Shown: piece after piece, positions 1,365 through 36,267 of the stretch | Layout: every line of letters begins with the position of its first letter | Numbering within the stretch: position 1 is the first letter of the stretch | Assembly (NCBI GenBank): GCA_039804025.1 | Contig: JBDRZP010000002.1 | Location: 96,851 to 160,850 of the forward strand | DNA from: a candidate division WOR-3 bacterium | GTDB taxonomy: Bacteria; Hydrothermota; Hydrothermia; Hydrothermales; JAJRUZ01 | Direction of reading: 5' to 3' | Length of the DNA stretch: 64,000 bases | Notes under the pieces: model-generated | What the model was told of the DNA's origin: nothing | Database searches by the model: none | What the model saw: the letters and a program-made list of their open reading frames with translations, nothing else | Translations under genes and position numbers: made by a program

Positions 1365-4298
1365 TTATTTCACAAATACAAGTTTCTTAGTGATATCCTT
1401 TGTATTTGTTTCAAGTCTCACAAAGTATACACCTGAAGAAAGTTTGTCTCTATCAATCTTTACACTATATTTACCTGGTGTCATAAATTTGTTATCAATT
1501 AGAGTTGCAACTTTTACACCATTTACATTGTAAAGATTTATCTTCACAGGGGAAGCATATGGAATTGTAAAATTAATTTCAGGATTTTTAGAAATTGAAT
1601 TGGGAATATTAAGAGCAAGTTCAAGTCTTTCTTTTATATTAATTGGCTTTTTGCCTTCTTTGACAGCAACAACAGGGAAAATAAGTTTTGTATAATAGGA
1701 CGGGACCCTTACGCTATCATTATCCTGAGGGAACCATCCACCATATTCTATTTTATTTGCAAAAGTATCACCTACTTGGAAGAAAAATCCAACAGTGTCA
1801 GGGAAAGAAACATCCAGCTCCTCATCAAGGGACCCAAAAGGGATAGCAATTTCATACTGTTCGTAACCAAGAGGCATGGCAGAAGCACAAGGGAATCCAA
1901 CGCTTTTTGTCTGTCCAAGAGTTCTATCTACAAAAATAGGTGTGAAAGCTGCTATATCAAGAATTGAAGTATAATAGAGAGCAACTCTACCTTCTTTTTT
2001 AATACCTGGAGGAGGAAATTGACCATCGTTATTATCATCAAAATAAAGGAATATTCTATCAAATTGAGTTCTTGTCAAATCAAAGGGAGCCCTCACAGCT
2101 GCATAGAGATAATCACCATCGTATTTTAAATAAATGAAAGCAGAACCCGGGGGATTAAGTAATCTATGCATCTGGAATACATCTGATGCATCAAGTTTTA
2201 TAGCATCATTCCATTCACTCAAAGTATCAATAAATCCATCAATAATTGGCATAACCTGAGAAACAGGAACAGTAATAAATCTTGGAACTTCCACTGTTGT
2301 AAAGGAAAGAGACTTAAAATTATTTGTAGGTTTTACATCAGTTGAAAGAAGGGTTTTTATAGTGAGAGTATAATTGAGGTTACCTGCACCAGTAGTAAAG
2401 GGAGCAAAACTTACAAGCAAAGTATCGTCACTTATTAGGTTATTCACAAGAACTGTATCAGCATAGACTGTGACTCCAGCAGAGTCTATTTTGGCTTCCA
2501 CATTAAAACTTTCTGTATTTAATCCCTCATTAACTATTTTAGCCTGAATCTGAATTGAAGAATAGGCAGGAGCAAAGGGTTTTGGTTTTTCAATACTAAA
2601 TACTCCAACATCATGTGCATAAGGATATCTTACAAAGGCACACATCATAAGATCTCCAGTAGTTGCATATTGCTGCCAGGTTCCACCAATTCTTGCCCAA
2701 GTTCTTGATGGATAATTAAGAGAAGCATCCACACCCTGACCCTCTGTTCCAGGATAAGGATAAAGCTGAACATGACCTATCCAGAAATCTCCTGAATTAA
2801 TCTTTACTTTTGGAAAAGCATAAACCCAGGACCTTGAGCCTGAAGGGTCAAGTGAGTCTGTTGTAACATTCACGGTATCAACAAAAATTTCATTTCCAGG
2901 ATAACCTGAATTCTCATCAAATACAGAAATCTGGAAATCCTGATGGGTTGCATCAGGCCATGGCCAGTAAGGGTCTCCTTCTGATAGAATATAAACTTTA
3001 ACTGTATCTACATAATAAGGATATGTTGCTGGGGAAATTCTGTGTCCCCATGCATTACCAGCAGCATAAAATGCATAGGCATTTGCCATTACTCCGTCAT
3101 TATAACATATCCATTCACCTGAAGAAGCTTTAACTTGTTTTGTCAAAGTGTCATCTCCGGCAAAATCATCAGCATAATCGTGCCATACAATTATCTCATA
3201 AGTAAATTCTGATGGTGTCCACTGTGGAGAAAAAGTAATAGTATCAGATGCTCCAGCAGGAAGAGAAGGTATTGTTTGAGACGAAGAGTAAACCTGGACA
3301 CCGAGAGATTCAACAACACAATAAACATTAAAACTACCTGCATTTGTTTGACCTATATTTTTAACTACAGCTTTAATATCAGTAGGAGTATAGGGCATAG
3401 TAGTTGAGGAAGGTGATATTATTTGATAGGTGCTGACATCGTTATTGAAAGTGGCTGCCAATATTTTCCATATATAAGAGGCATAAAAGGCAGTATAGTA
3501 TATAAACTTATCACCATCAAAAACTATACCCTCTGGAATAAGACTGTAACCCCCGGGTGGAGCATACTGAGCCACAATTACACCGTTTGAGCCCGAAATA
3601 TCAACCTCATTTATCTCTGCAGAAGCTCCATTATCATCAGTAACCCACATATTTCCTGTTCTTGAATCATAACTTATATCCATTGGCCAATCAATAATAC
3701 TTCCAACACTTACAGTTCTAATAATCTGATTGGTGGAAGGATCCCATTGAACAAGAGAGCCTAATCCAACCCCACCACCAACACTTGCAACCCATAAATA
3801 ATTATTATCATTTGTAAGACCCCTTATATATGTTCCAACAGGTGAAGAATATGTTTGAACATAGGTTCCATTTGTCTGGTATTTATATATGTATCCATAG
3901 CTAAAATCAGCTATCCATAAATAACCCTGAAAATATGTTATTCCAAGACAATAACCGCCACTTGAAAGTTGCCACTGATTAACCACATTACCAGTTGAGG
4001 GATCAATAACATAAACTATAACAGGGGTAGTTGCATTTGAAATATTATAAAGGTAAGTCCCATCAAACCCAAGACCCATGTGATATGAACCTGGAGCAGG
4101 GAAGGAATCAACAACATCCCAGAGAGGAACCTTTAAAAGATTTTTATAAACCTCTGAAGGTTTTCCATTTTGAAGTAGAGAGGCACCTGCTTTTAAAAGT
4201 TCATCTTTTTTAGAGGTAGGTAAAGAACCTGTTTTTACTGTAATGCCTTCACCAGCTATAAGCCCTGCTACTAAAAGGGCTAAAATGAGACTCCTCAT
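1365..4298 (-). CDS. Large secreted T9SS-sorted surface protein (signal peptide, beta-propeller-like repeats, two CARDB-like domains, Por C-terminal sorting domain)
   Basis: There is a signal peptide, MRSLILALLVAGLIAGEG. The N-terminal half carries repeated YLW.AS / GG.G blade-like motifs. Ig-like, CARDB-type segments follow (VKNIGQTNAGSFNVYCVV; IVNEGLNTESFNVEAKIDS). The C-terminus, KINLYNVNGVKVATLI...GVYFVRLETN...KKLVFVK, is typical of a T9SS CTD. A good RBS, AAGGAGGAAAAGC, precedes the ATG. Confidence 0.7.
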   Translation of the reverse strand: MRSLILALLVAGLIAGEGITVKTGSLPTSKKDELLKAGASLLQNGKPSEVYKNLLKVPLWDVVDSFPAPGSYHMGLGFDGTYLYNISNATTPVIVYVIDPSTGNVVNQWQLSSGGYCLGITYFQGYLWIADFSYGYIYKYQTNGTYVQTYSSPVGTYIRGLTNDNNYLWVASVGGGVGLGSLVQWDPSTNQIIRTVSVGSIIDWPMDISYDSRTGNMWVTDDNGASAEINEVDISGSNGVIVAQYAPPGGYSLIPEGIVFDGDKFIYYTAFYASYIWKILAATFNNDVSTYQIISPSSTTMPYTPTDIKAVVKNIGQTNAGSFNVYCVVESLGVQVYSSSQTIPSLPAGASDTITFSPQWTPSEFTYEIIVWHDYADDFAGDDTLTKQVKASSGEWICYNDGVMANAYAFYAAGNAWGHRISPATYPYYVDTVKVYILSEGDPYWPWPDATHQDFQISVFDENSGYPGNEIFVDTVNVTTDSLDPSGSRSWVYAFPKVKINSGDFWIGHVQLYPYPGTEGQGVDASLNYPSRTWARIGGTWQQYATTGDLMMCAFVRYPYAHDVGVFSIEKPKPFAPAYSSIQIQAKIVNEGLNTESFNVEAKIDSAGVTVYADTVLVNNLISDDTLLVSFAPFTTGAGNLNYTLTIKTLLSTDVKPTNNFKSLSFTTVEVPRFITVPVSQVMPIIDGFIDTLSEWNDAIKLDASDVFQMHRLLNPPGSAFIYLKYDGDYLYAAVRAPFDLTRTQFDRIFLYFDDNNDGQFPPPGIKKEGRVALYYTSILDIAAFTPIFVDRTLGQTKSVGFPCASAMPLGYEQYEIAIPFGSLDEELDVSFPDTVGFFFQVGDTFANKIEYGGWFPQDNDSVRVPSYYTKLIFPVVAVKEGKKPINIKERLELALNIPNSISKNPEINFTIPYASPVKINLYNVNGVKVATLIDNKFMTPGKYSVKIDRDKLSSGVYFVRLETNTKDITKKLVFVK

Positions 4299-33177: not shown

Positions 33178-34431
33178 TCAATATAGAGTATTCAAAATTT
33201 TTAAAGGTACCCCCATTAAACCAAAATCTTTCCTCAACTGATTTTTTATATATCTTATATAATAAGTTGGCAAATAATCCTCTGAAATAACTTCATAAAC
33301 TCTGGGAATTTTGCTTTTCTCTCTTATATCCTTAATAAAAAAAGGAGGTGGATTTTCCTTCACAACTTTTGACAAAAATTTTTTAAGAAACGATTTTTTA
33401 ATTACTCTATTCATCTCTTTCCAGACATTTCTTATAGTTAAATAAAGAGTATCAATTCCGAGCTTTTCTTTTGCAGAAACGAGGATTATGGGAACATAAG
33501 AAATATAGGGATAGATTTCCTTTAAATCCTTATAAATTTTTTCAATTTCTTTTTCTTTTAAAAGATCAATCTTATTCAAAGCAATAATTATACCTTTACC
33601 CTTTTCCTCAATTAATGAAAAAATTTTTCTTTCAATTTTTGTAAAGGGTTCACGGATATCTATTACAAATATGACAATTAATGAGTAATCAATAGAGTGA
33701 GATGTTTTTACATAGGAAAAATATTCAAGATCATTATTAAATTTTTTTCTAATTCCTGCAGTATCAATAAATATAAATTCATCTTTAAAAGCTTCAACAG
33801 GGTCCCTTGTTGTTCCTGGAACAGGTGATACAATAGCATAATCTTCTCCTATAAGGGAATTTAAGAGTGAGGACTTCCCCACATTTGGTCTTCCGATTAT
33901 TGTTACAGGAATTTTTTTCTCTTCACTTTCCTTACAGGGGAACTCTTTAATTAGACTTTCAATTAACTCTGAAATACCCCACTTTTGAGTAGCTGATATT
34001 TTAAAAATTTTCTCTTGAGGTATTGAAAGTTCATAAAAATCAAGAAGATTTTTATCTTTAGCATCTATTTTATTTATGATAAGATAGATTGGTTTATTTT
34101 TAGTTCTCAGCAAATTCATGATCTCTTTATCTCCCTCTGTTAAACCTTCCTTAGCGTCAACTACAAAGAGAAAAAGGTCAGCCTCATCTATTATTTTGAA
34201 AACCTTTGATTTTACCTCTTCTTTTAACTCATCCTCAGGACCAAAAAGACCACCTGTATCACAAACCTCAAAAATATTGTCATCATATACAACTCTCTTT
34301 CTTAAAATATCCCTTGTAATTCCAGGTAACCTGTGGGTTACAGCTATATTTTTGCCAACTATTGAATTAAAAAGGGTGCTCTTTCCTACATTAACCCTTC
34401 CTATAATTACAAAAAAGGGAATTTTTTTCAC
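33178..34431 (-). CDS. der: Ribosome-biogenesis GTPase Der (EngA)
   Basis: There are two tandem G domains ([12 protein letters not shown]...DTGG and [12 protein letters not shown]...DTAG) followed by a KH-like C-terminus. Confidence 0.9.
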
Positions 34432-34682
34432 TTCTTAATATAATAAAAAGAAATAACAAGGAAAAAAAGAGAAATATAAAAATTTTTAAAAGAAATGTTA
34501 AAAATAACAGCAGAAAGAGAAAGAGTTGAAAATTTTATTATATATAAAAACTTCTCCTCATTAATAATTTTTTTATAAAACCTATATAAGGGAAAATTTT
34601 CTAAAAATAGAAGGGAATAAAAAAACAAAAAAAATGAAACAAAAAGAGAAAAAAATCTTATTTCTCTTAAATAAAGAGGCAA
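34428..34682 (-). CDS. Doubtful small hydrophobic ORF (low complexity)
   Basis: 84 aa of F/L/K-rich sequence in an AT-rich tract. It could simply be der 5' leader or promoter space. Confidence 0.2.
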
Positions 34683-34737
34683 AAATAAGGAAATTAAATA
34701 AGGAAATAGGAAAAATATAATAAAGTAGAAGATTTTA

Positions 34738-34751
34738 GAACCGGGGGACGG
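34738..34751 (-). other. GC-rich 3'-UTR element GAACCGGGGGACGG (+ strand), complementary to the hup 5' leader element
   Basis: Seen directly. On the mRNA it also forms a local hairpin, AACCG-UCCCC-CGGUU, 13 nt after the hup stop. Confidence 0.5.
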
Positions 34752-34764
34752 TTTTCTAATTATA

Positions 34765-35040
34765 TTACTTCTTTACAAGGTTTTTAAGCTCTGAAGAAGG
34801 TCTGAAGAAAGGAACCTTCTGGGCAGGAATTGTTATTTCTGCCCCTGTTCTTGGATTTCTTCCTTTTCTCTGTTTTCTCTTTTTAACTCCAAAAGTTCCA
34901 AATCCAACAAGTCTTAACTCATCTCCCTTTTTAAGGGTTTGTTTTACTGCATCAATAAAAGCATCAACAGCCGCTGCTGCGGCTTTTTTTGCTATTTTTG
35001 CCTTACTGGCAACATGGTCGATAAGTTCAGCTTTATTCAT
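34765..35040 (-). CDS. hup: DNA-binding protein HU
   Basis: MNKAELIDHVA...GFGTFGVKKRKQRKGRNPRTGAEITIPA carries the HU arm signature. The RBS is AAAAAGGAGGTAAAAT. Confidence 0.9.
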   Translation of the reverse strand: MNKAELIDHVASKAKIAKKAAAAAVDAFIDAVKQTLKKGDELRLVGFGTFGVKKRKQRKGRNPRTGAEITIPAQKVPFFRPSSELKNLVKK

Positions 35041-35082
35041 ATTTTACCTCCTTTTTGTTTTTTTTTTGATTTTAAAGATTTT

Positions 35083-35097
35083 CCGTCCCCCGGGTTC
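35083..35097 (-). other. 5'-leader element (mRNA 5'-GAACCCGGGGGACGG) at the predicted hup transcription start, complementary to 34738..34751
   Basis: Seen directly. It pairs with the 3' element over 14 bp with one C bulge. Confidence 0.5.
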
Positions 35098-35104
35098 ATA
35101 TTTA

Positions 35105-35133
35105 ATTATAACATAAAAGAAAAGATTTGTCAA
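35105..35133 (-). promoter_or_regulatory. Sigma-70-type promoter of hup (TTGACA - 17 nt - TATAAT on the minus strand)
   Basis: The minus-strand -35 TTGACA lies at 35133..35128 and the -10 TATAAT at 35110..35105. The predicted TSS is about 7 nt downstream, at roughly 35098-35097. That is the first base of the GC-rich leader element. Confidence 0.6.
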
Positions 35134-35190
35134 GTCTTAATGTTGAAAGAACACATTTTCAAAAATTATTTTTTAAAACCATTATAAATA

Positions 35191-36267
35191 CTATTTTCCA
35201 TTTATACTATTTAGTATTAAATAAACTGGATTAAATTTTTCATTGTTAGAGAGTATTTTTCTTATCGTTTCAAGTTCACACAAAATTCTTTCTAATTTTT
35301 TTTCATCCTGAGAAAGTGAAACTAAAAAATCTCTTATATCTTTAAGTTTTATATGTTGAATATATTCAGGTATTATTTTCTTTCCACTTATTATGTTAAC
35401 AAGAGACACATAGGGAACTTTTGTTAAAATTCTGGCAAGGTAATATGTGAGTTCTGATACCTTATAAATTACAACCATAGGAGTCCCTGCAAGGGCACAT
35501 TCAAGAGAAGCTGTACCACTAACTGTTATAGCAAATTTAGATTTTTCTATATAAGGGGTTGGATCCTTATCTATAACTTCAAACTTATTTTTTATCTTCT
35601 CTAAAATCTCTTTTTCAGGATAAATAATGGATATTAAAAATTTATAGTCTTTAAAATCTTCTTCTATATAATCCCTTATTTTTATCATATCAATAATATG
35701 TCTTTTTATTTCTTTTTTTCTTGAGCCTGGAAGGAAGATAATCCATTTTTCTTTATTTAAATTCCAATTAATTCTTTCTGCAATAGGAGTGCCTACAAAA
35801 AAAGCGGGAACCCCCTTTTTTCTTAAAAAGTCTGCTTCAAAAGGAAAGGTTGATAAAACCCTGTCAGTATATCTTCTTAAATCCCTTATTCTCCAAGAGC
35901 CCCAGGCCCAGACCTGAGGGGGAATATAGTAAAAAACTTCCCTTTTTATTTTCTTTAAATGTTTTGCAAGAATCAAATTGAAACCAGGAAAATCAACAAG
36001 AATTATTTTTTTTATATCATTTTTTATAACAAAGTATATAATTTCTTTTAGTAAATTTTTAAAAAAGCCTACTATACCTATTGCTTCTGTAAATCCAACA
36101 ACTGCTTTTTCTGTTATATCTTTTATAAGAACAGCACCTTTTTTCTCCATTTCTTTACCGCCATAGGCAAAAATCTCAATATCTTTTCTTTTTTCTAAAA
36201 TCTTTTCAATTAAATAAGAAGCATTCTTATCACCAGAAATTTCACCGGCTACAAAAAGTATTTTCAT
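35191..36267 (-). CDS. lpxB: Lipid-A-disaccharide synthase
   Basis: MKILFVAGEISGDKNASYLIEKI is an LpxB N-terminus. The protein has GT-B architecture of about 360 aa. Confidence 0.8.
   Translation of the reverse strand: MKILFVAGEISGDKNASYLIEKILEKRKDIEIFAYGGKEMEKKGAVLIKDITEKAVVGFTEAIGIVGFFKNLLKEIIYFVIKNDIKKIILVDFPGFNLILAKHLKKIKREVFYYIPPQVWAWGSWRIRDLRRYTDRVLSTFPFEADFLRKKGVPAFFVGTPIAERINWNLNKEKWIIFLPGSRKKEIKRHIIDMIKIRDYIEEDFKDYKFLISIIYPEKEILEKIKNKFEVIDKDPTPYIEKSKFAITVSGTASLECALAGTPMVVIYKVSELTYYLARILTKVPYVSLVNIISGKKIIPEYIQHIKLKDIRDFLVSLSQDEKKLERILCELETIRKILSNNEKFNPVYLILNSINGK

Follow-up and report, generated by a model that had tools for sequence, protein, structure and literature searches.

Known pairings between the ends of bacterial transcripts

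The E. coli ompA leader and the B. subtilis aprE and ermC leaders stabilise their messages through 5'-terminal stem-loops, which are local leader hairpins, and a paired 5' terminus of this kind blocks 5'-end-dependent decay. rRNA processing stalks are long and are cut by RNase III, an enzyme whose typical substrates span roughly two helical turns, and intercistronic stabilisers are local hairpins. Few bacterial messages, namely RNAIII, icaR and hbs, are known to pair their 5' and 3' UTRs in cis (review PMC7821165). The B. subtilis hbs mRNA, which encodes HU, displays a 14-nt interaction between its two UTRs that was proven by compensatory mutants (Braun, Durand and Condon 2017, PMC5737220); this interaction limits RNase Y cleavage and slows decay, and stability is restored in the compensatory mutants (PMC5737220). 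In S. aureus icaR, as summarised in the review, a UCCCC motif of the 3' region occupies the Shine-Dalgarno sequence by base pairing, so that translation is blocked and RNase III is attracted (PMC7821165).

A related arrangement was found around hup, the HU gene of the window, i.e. the whole 64-kb stretch of DNA that was analysed. As in hbs, the message encodes HU, the helix is 14 nt long, its arms lie in the leader and just past the stop codon, and a very strong Shine-Dalgarno sequence stays outside the helix. The two loci nevertheless belong to different phyla, their arm sequences differ and no common descent is detectable between them. The hbs 5' arm lies downstream of two leader hairpins and over the RNase Y site, whereas the window arm occupies the first predicted nucleotides of the transcript with no hairpin upstream. 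Likewise, the hbs mRNA is monocistronic and its 3' arm directly precedes the intrinsic terminator, whereas that of the window adjoins the coding sequence of another gene, termed orfX. The window helix is hbs-like in its working, but it is not the hbs element by descent and departs from it in these two positional features. Moreover, the hbs 3' UTR is counted among the functional 3' UTRs that are not conserved in the orthologous mRNAs of close relatives (PMC7821165), whereas the window helix is kept with covariation across several clades.

As far as the account of icaR in that review goes, it has in common with the window the cis pairing of an mRNA 3' region with the leader through a C-rich 3' motif. 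On the contrary, the Shine-Dalgarno sequence of the window (35054..35046) is left free, 28 nt from the arm, and the 3' arm pairs with 35097..35083. As in the 5'-terminal stabilisers, the predicted 5' terminus is engaged in a helix with at most ~2 unpaired nt, which is the protective feature, but the partner strand is located ~345 nt downstream, beyond the CDS. rRNA stalks and intercistronic stabilisers resemble the window in that flanking complementarity or a 3'-edge stem delimits and protects a segment of a longer transcript, yet neither involves the 5' end of an mRNA. The main new point is that a predicted end-to-end helix is phylogenetically maintained, with compensatory changes, in a deep-branching thermophilic candidate phylum. 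This provides comparative evidence that selection maintains end-to-end mRNA pairing, and it suggests that the HU messages of two unrelated phyla reached the same solution independently.

The hup gene and its flanking arms

The elements of the hup unit in the window are, in the order of transcription:

35128..35133, minus strand, -35 hexamer TTGACA of the hup promoter (consensus scan)
35105..35113, minus strand, extended -10 element TGnTATAAT of the hup promoter (consensus scan)
35083..35097, minus strand, 5' arm GAACCCGGGGGACGG, predicted first nucleotides of the transcript
35055..35082, minus strand, A-rich leader of 28 nt from the 5' arm to the ribosome-binding site, whose length and sequence differ from relative to relative
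35046..35054, minus strand, strong Shine-Dalgarno sequence AAAGGAGGT, outside the helix (sequence reading)
34765..35040, minus strand, hup coding sequence (HU, 91 aa; Pfam PF00216, E = 2.8e-34)
34738..34751, minus strand, 3' arm CCGTCCCCCGGTTC, starting 13 nt (A+T-rich) past the hup stop codon

The hup promoter is made of TTGACA (35133..35128), a 17-nt spacer and TATAAT (35110..35105), with 12 of 12 consensus matches and an upstream TG. Its hexamers are kept among the A+T-rich relatives described below: TATAAT is identical in all of them, and TTGACA is retained at 14 of the 15 loci (L083 reads TTGACT) with a spacer that varies in sequence. The consensus sigma-70 promoter that the initial annotation had read on the minus strand is thus confirmed. 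The hup transcript is predicted to start at 35099-35097. Seven A+T bases separate the -10 hexamer from GAACCCGGGGGACGG, which begins at the 8th nucleotide, and in every member of clade A, to which the window belongs, the 5' arm begins 6-9 nt past the hexamer; the placing of the 5' element at the predicted transcript start, which had also been proposed, is borne out by these positions. The total leader length is 39-73 nt across relatives. A Shine-Dalgarno sequence AAGGAGGT is present at 15/15 A+T-rich loci and is invariant in an 11-sequence alignment. A regulation of HU translation by the pairing had been suggested as well; it is unsupported, the 5' arm ending 28 nt upstream of the Shine-Dalgarno sequence.

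GAACCCGGGGGACGG and CCGTCCCCCGGTTC form a 14-bp helix of 11 G:C and three A:U pairs in which a single C is bulged; the duplex of the arms alone has a dG of -29.1 kcal/mol. The 276-nt hup gene is thereby enclosed in a loop of about 330-350 nt. Sequence and duplex energy thus agree with the 14-bp duplex with a single bulged C that the initial annotation had drawn between both hup flanks, and its description as almost entirely G:C is to be corrected to 11 of 14 pairs. The G+C content of the window is ~30%, and its 64 kb contain nine islands with at least 9/10 G+C, two of which are the arms, while three fall inside a tRNA gene. With one mismatch allowed, the 11-mer core CCGGGGGACGG was found just at these two sites within the 64-kb window, where ~0.01 matches are expected by chance, and two matches were seen in 0/100 shuffles. 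The arm complementarity is not a chance match, and the search for other copies gave no indication of a repeat family.

Conservation and covariation of the arms

A HU protein scan of genome contigs gave at least 80 generic HU loci, with 62% as the best identity among the matches listed. None of these listed matches was a close relative, and 80 loci were reused as an out-group control only. Syntenic relatives were found through a protein search and then exact-protein look-ups. In addition, metagenomes were probed independently of the arms with a degenerate pattern for the HU C-terminal peptide KVP[FAV]FRP[SA]S[ED]L, which is specific to the HU sub-family of these loci. The comparison set consists of 15 distinct A+T-rich loci including the window, which form three clades (A to C) of Ca. 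Hydrothermales/WOR-3 and whose HU proteins are 65-96% identical. A further clade (D) comes from organisms of higher G+C content.

Clade A: the window (WIN), L081-L087, L089 and L096; gene order lpxB-hup-orfX-der; HU 79-96% identical
Clade B: L090, L103 and L104; gene order dprA-hup-(orfX)-der; HU ~69% identical
Clade C: L094 and L101; HU 65% identical
Clade D: L091-L093 and L098, four loci of which three are distinct; organisms of ~60% G+C

Complementary arms were found at 15/15 A+T-rich loci, with sequences that differ by clade and helices of 10-22 bp (dG -23 to -33 kcal/mol for arm-only duplexes). In clade A the arms are ..ACCCGGGGGACGG / CCGTCCCCCGG.., or more fully (G)GA(A)CCCGGGGGACGG(A..) opposite (..T)CCGTCCCCCGG(K)(Y)C. 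Clade B carries TTGCCCCGGGGAAAG / CTTTCCCCGGGGCAA, which pair over a perfect 15 bp in L103 and L104, and clade C carries TTTGCCCCGGGG / CCCCGGGGCAAA. Within clade A, the outer pairs are A:U in some members (GAACC/GGTTC) and G:C in others (GGACC/GGTCC), with G.U intermediates in L086 and L089, and the inner end of the helix is extended in some members (GGAT/ATCC, GGAA/TTCC). The spacer from the stop codon to the 3' arm measures about 6-25 nt across relatives and varies in length and sequence, and the open reading frame through the 3' arm differs between sub-clades (PSPG vs RPPV). Since leader and spacer are unconserved and the frame through the 3' arm is variable, the constraint acts on the nucleotides and on their complementarity.

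A whole-mRNA MAFFT alignment misaligned the arms of the distant clades, and the counts for the 15-pair helix were taken instead from a gapless mini-alignment of the arm regions anchored on the core, a register that undercounts the outer pairs in clade A sequences with a bulge. RNAduplex applied to 88-nt and 60-70-nt flanks of the loci and of all window genes was dropped as a poor statistic, because scattered A+U helices are strung together and some of the upstream flank is untranscribed promoter. It was replaced by arm-only duplexes, by a compact-helix score with a reversed-tail control and by formal pair counts. Standard pairs occupy 86.7% of the cells (15-pair helix, 15 loci; 0/500 shuffles as high), and six of the 15 pairs have changed on both sides. 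Cells with both-side changes number 25, against 11.2 expected (0/500 shuffles as high), and the covariation score reaches 0.308, compared with at most 0.132 for registers shifted by 1-3 columns; the covariation comes from just three or four independent lineages, and shuffling therefore exaggerates how independent the changes are. The compensatory changes for which the hup flanks of relatives had been proposed as a source are thus present. Moreover, G.U pairs in several relatives fit sense-strand RNA and not DNA.

These data bear on a DNA-level explanation, in which the elements would be the terminal inverted repeats of an insertion, the borders of an invertible segment or two operators for one regulator. 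The elements are indeed inverted repeats at the DNA level, with cores (CCCGGGGG or CCCCGGGG) that form partial palindromes. However, a single pair exists within 64 kb, no transposase or invertase gene adjoins the hup locus, and every clade A contig shows lpxB-hup-orfX-der in one and the same order and orientation, none of them carrying it inverted. Furthermore, bulges, G.T positions and both-side changes preserve the pairing and not a fixed motif. No direct repeat beside the arms is visible by eye in the window sequence. This explanation is hardly credible, and the terminal-inverted-repeat alternative of the initial annotation was rejected on account of the single pair, the conserved synteny, the compensatory changes and the G.U pairs. 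Because the pair is single in the window and is kept and covarying among relatives, it is to be seen as an RNA-level helix and not as a mobile-element repeat. As regards existence alone, it is very probable that the two arms pair with each other in a conserved long-range RNA helix ('panhandle'). Such a panhandle had been proposed to join the two ends of the mRNA: the predicted helix does link the hup mRNA 5' end to a site past the stop codon, and this site is probably not the mRNA 3' end.

Predicted folding of the hup message

When the RNA from 35097 to 34700 (35097..34700) was folded, the arm helix was present in both the MFE and the centroid structures (z = -4.45), and the co-folding of both flanks that had been put forward as a check therefore gives the arm helix as the dominant prediction. 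In partition-function calculations, the window arm pairs have a mean probability of about 0.91-0.95 at 37, 55, 70 and 80 °C, and the arm helix stays while much of the remaining hup mRNA structure melts over 37-80 °C. In the same way, the arm helix closes the MFE structure of 15/15 predicted hup mRNAs, with pair probabilities of 0.74-0.99 at 37-80 °C, and RNAalifold recovered the same closure independently from a whole-mRNA alignment. The persistence of the helix at high temperature matters since, by the names of its closest HU proteins, the window comes from Ca. Hydrothermales/WOR-3, and the single WOR-3 strain in culture, sy37, has been grown at 70 °C (PMC12285271); sy37 may match the ~60% G+C clade D.

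In clades B and C, the G+C arm is located ~33 nt downstream of the -10 hexamer, and the predicted nucleotides +1 to +11 can pair directly beyond the 3' arm. The result is a bipartite helix of ~10 bp, an internal loop and 13-15 bp, up to ~25 bp in total. These outer A+U-rich helices could be fortuitous matches in A+T-rich sequence.

The bipartite helix is relevant to a processing stalk, in which RNase III would cut the duplex and thereby free a paired-end hup mRNA from orfX-der, or trigger decay as in icaR. In agreement with this, a double-stranded helix flanks the entire cistron, clades B and C have a predicted helix of two parts, and the 5'/3' pairing of icaR makes an RNase III substrate according to the summary in the review (PMC7821165). 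Nevertheless, the window helix is just 14 bp with a bulge, below roughly two helical turns, and the helix length is not conserved, being 10-18 bp within transcribed sequence. Measured against an RNase III criterion of ~20 bp or more, the continuous duplex amounts to 14 bp plus a bulge in the window and to up to ~25 bp, in bipartite form, in clades B and C. A stalk of this type is improbable.

Genes downstream of hup

Two genes follow hup on the same strand of the window:

34428..34736, minus strand, orfX, unannotated hydrophobic protein of ~100 aa with an uncertain start codon (conserved ORF)
33178..34431, minus strand, der (EngA GTPase), conserved downstream neighbour in clades A-C (neighbourhood and Pfam)

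orfX overlaps the start of der by 4 nt and begins at or beside the 3' arm. The roughly 330-nt interval between hup and der corresponds to orfX and is conserved in clades A, B (L103) and C (L101). Compared with close relatives, the differences in orfX at codon positions 1/2/3 are 14/6/25 and 13/5/30, which is the signature of a translated gene; the protein had no Pfam match. In clades B and C, the orfX ATG lies 2-6 nt past the 3' arm, and in L089 a GTG is found 8 nt ahead of it. In the window and most of clade A, no ATG, GTG or TTG precedes the conserved first hydrophobic segment of orfX, and the stretch directly after the hup stop codon offers ATA, ATT or ATC codons only. L090 is devoid of orfX, and its der ATG is located 21 nt past the 3' arm.

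A terminator scan of the minus strand detected no terminator-like site after the 3' arm in the window, where the tail is UAAAAUCU, and a conserved U-tract after the 3' arm was not found among relatives. As the 3' arm lacks a terminator and stands at the start of a conserved ORF that overlaps der, the transcript probably continues. hup thus probably heads a hup-(orfX)-der unit, with orfX and der presumably co-transcribed with it, and the 3' arm would mark the cistron boundary. The 3' element had been described as part of a 3' UTR: it does lie 13 nt past the stop codon, and since it adjoins orfX without a terminator it does not belong to a terminal 3' UTR.

The two arms could also form a long-range terminator hairpin that stops or reduces transcription before orfX-der. 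Such an intrinsic terminator or attenuator would be in keeping with the lack of a local terminator hairpin after hup and with the U-rich sequence found soon past the arm in L090 (GGGGCAUUUUUAUUU), L087 and L089. On the other hand, the U-tract is unconserved, the arm being directly followed by UAAAAUCU in the window and by AAAAAUG or AAAUGAA in clades B and C, and, on general kinetic grounds, a hairpin with a translated loop of 330 nt is unlikely to form in time for termination. The pair was rejected as an intrinsic terminator on the basis of its long-range stem and of a tail without a conserved U-tract, and a terminating or attenuating role is very improbable.

A translational role is suggested by the position of the 3' arm. 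As an insulator or coupling device, the helix would hide the initiation region of orfX, and that of der via the 4-nt overlap, so that ribosomes leaving the heavily translated hup would rarely start on orfX-der, or would need a terminating ribosome to open the helix first. orfX is a genuine CDS, conserved and beginning at the 3' arm, and no terminator or conserved promoter separates it from hup. Moreover, the orfX ATG of clades B and C lies inside the predicted bipartite helix, the leader CAU pairs with the orfX AUG in L104, and the GTG start of L089 stands 8 nt before the 3' arm. This role is however rather unlikely as the explanation of the helix, which is present in L090 without orfX and is kept in clade D, whose hup genes end at terminators of their own and, in L091-L093, face a convergent neighbour; in clade A the masking cannot be placed because the orfX start codon is not identifiable there. 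An insulator role is compatible with a role in message stability and the two are not exclusive.

Lineage specificity and clade D

The specificity of the pairing was assessed with a score defined as the best compact leader/tail helix minus the reversed-tail control. The score excess is 9-21 units in 15/15 loci of clades A-C and 9-11 in clade D. HU loci of Bacteroidota, Pseudomonadota and others (n=73) have a mean excess of 0.55, and two of the 73 reach at least 8. End-to-end pairing is thus a property of the lineage and not general to hup genes.

In clade D, hup ends with a canonical terminator, GGGGGCGCAAGCCCCC then T6, and the downstream gene is convergent with hup in L091-L093, which are the clade D loci with gene calls. 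In the MFE structure, the leader element GGGGGUUGCGUCCCU pairs with the whole terminator, which is 7 kcal/mol better than the best local-only fold, and the leader is paired with the terminator in this manner at the three distinct ~60% G+C loci. Clade D shares with hbs a layout in which a 5' hairpin is followed by the arm and the 3' arm is at the terminator. The predicted helix is hup-centred, as it survives both the absence of orfX (L090) and a terminator-ended hup (clade D).

Proposed role of the helix

The favoured reading is that the helix protects the hup message from ribonucleases. According to this model, hup transcription would start at the 5' arm or within 2 nt of it, and once RNA polymerase clears the hup stop codon the 3' arm would pair with the 5' arm, shutting the whole hup cistron in a ~350-nt loop under a 14-bp G+C-rich clamp. 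The clamp is predicted to be stable near 70 °C, with the rest of the A+T-rich message far less structured. Decay that depends on the 5' end (RppH, RNase J, RNase E/Y entry) would act poorly on a paired 5' terminus, and 3'-to-5' exonucleases would be held up by the helix where the hup cistron ends. With both ends shielded in this way, the abundant HU message could outlive the orfX-der part of its transcription unit. A protected 3' end would require an unproven processing step, because no terminator or conserved U-tract follows the 3' arm.

Several arguments favour protection. The 5' terminus is predicted to be paired in every clade, and the hup-centred helix outlasts the loss of orfX and the switch to a terminator-ended hup. 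HU is needed far above Der, and a hup module that resists nucleases and stands first in the operon would bring this about. Finally, the only HU mRNA known to have been dissected by experiment, B. subtilis hbs, uses a stabilising 5'/3'-UTR interaction. The overlap of the 3' arm with the orfX initiation region fits a translational role equally well. Taken jointly, the claim that the long-range helix exists and that it would protect the hup message from ribonucleases has about an even chance of being right.

The hup message represents a natural test case, with a 14-bp clamp, a 276-nt gene and natural compensatory variants, for what the sealing of a 5' terminus to the end of a cistron does to decay, operon processing and translation. 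The analysis has also exposed orfX, an unannotated conserved gene whose start is entangled with the helix.

The same geometry would be suited to a closed loop made of RNA only, in which ribosomes or 30S subunits released at the hup stop codon would re-initiate on the same message, which is short and expressed at a very high level. The helix would set the stop codon, 13 nt from the 3' arm, near the leader, whose 5' arm is ~30 nt from the Shine-Dalgarno sequence, and would at the same time keep recycled ribosomes out of orfX-der. Such recycling is quite improbable. If true, it would do in a thermophile what cap/poly(A) circularisation does in eukaryotes, a G+C clamp being the one device that withstands the growth temperature.

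Other candidate elements in the window

A search of the whole window against Rfam at gathering thresholds returned two tRNAs and no other match, and the region 34400..35250 gave sub-threshold chance matches only. A promoter-like TTAAAA-17-TATAAT (34787..34759), whose predicted start falls exactly at the 3' arm, was discarded, its -10 not being kept in relatives; such promoter-like matches are equally frequent in shuffled sequence (11 found vs 8.5 expected). A second pair of complementary elements, ACCCGGGGG / CCCCCGGGT (3560..3550 and 2157..2143), is located within one large CDS, where it encodes Pro-Pro-Gly, and was judged a coincidence.

A conserved gene between hup and der

The interval between hup (the HU gene) and der (encoding the EngA GTPase) is not empty but is occupied by an open reading frame, referred to here as orfX, that runs 4 nt into the start of der.

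34428..34736, minus strand: orfX, a conserved unannotated ORF with a hydrophobic product of about 100 aa

The same ORF was also found downstream of hup in A+T-rich relatives belonging to clades A (L081-L085, L087, L089, L096), B (L103) and C (L101). The way in which substitutions are distributed across codon positions shows orfX to be translated. Its product has no match in Pfam. In most clade A genomes orfX lacks a canonical start codon, and the sole candidate starts are ATA, ATT or ATC placed directly after the hup stop.

Additional predicted pairings of the hup leader

In clades B (L090, L103, L104) and C (L094, L101), the predicted transcript begins with a conserved UCUUUGAAAAU (nucleotides +1 to +11) that is able to pair with the sequence directly 3' of the 3' arm of the long-range helix bracketing hup. 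This second predicted helix would enclose the orfX AUG, which in L104 is predicted to pair with a CAU of the leader.

In the relatives of about 60% G+C (clade D), hup has its own terminator. The leader element GGGGGUUGCGUCCCU of L091, L092 and L098 is complementary to the entire sequence of the terminator hairpin, GGGGGCGCAAGCCCCC. In computed folds the leader-terminator pairing is about 7 kcal/mol more stable than the local-only fold. The clade D terminator could re-pair with the hup leader once termination is done.

In the window, the minimum free energy fold also predicts that the hup Shine-Dalgarno region, AAGGAGGU (35046..35053, minus strand), is paired with ACCUUCUU (34794..34801, minus strand), the latter lying within the codons of the conserved RPSS motif close to the hup 3' end.

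Hairpins within the hup coding sequence

Small hairpins inside hup are preserved among relatives by compensatory synonymous changes.

About 34969..34984, 34925..34937 and 34821..34844, minus strand: small hairpins in the hup coding sequence

At one pair of the hairpin GCCGC-AGCA-GCGGC, 6 sequences have C:G and 5 have U:A; at one pair of CCCU-UAAAA-AGGG, C:G is found in 7 sequences, U:A in 4. These changes suggest that RNA structure in the hup coding region is under selection.

The rare motif and G+C-rich elements elsewhere

The rare motif of the two arms that bracket hup recurs as one further pair, whose members lie 1.4 kb apart and share 9 complementary nt.

3550..3560 and 2143..2157, minus strand: CCACCCGGGGG and TCCCCCGGGTTC, within the ORF 1365..4298

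This ORF encodes a 977-aa protein with CARDB and T9SS-sorting-tail domains, in which the two sites code for PPGG and NPPGS. Their complementarity is probably a coincidence.

Among 73 HU loci from other phyla, a clear excess of leader/tail complementarity was found in only two, L017 (a Bacteroidales MAG) and L076 (Aquaspirillum serpens), for which a portion of the scored 5' segment may precede the start of transcription.

The 64-kb window contains only nine G+C-rich islands (at least 9 of 10 nt), and terminator-like sites with a G+C stem are very few in it; judged from this window, the genome appears to have few classical intrinsic terminators.

Surroundings of hup and its promoter

Two elements were noted around hup.

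34759..34787, minus strand: promoter-like TTAAAA-17-TATAAT, overlapping the hup stop codon
About 35135..35158, minus strand: motif AAATGTGTTCTTTCAACATTAAGA, immediately upstream of the hup -35 hexamer

A transcript predicted from the first would begin exactly at the 3' arm. This site is probably fortuitous as a promoter, since its -10 hexamer was found in only the two closest relatives. The upstream motif is kept among clade A relatives in the form AAATG[TG][GC]C..T.T.CAA and could be an UP element or a regulator-binding site of the hup promoter.
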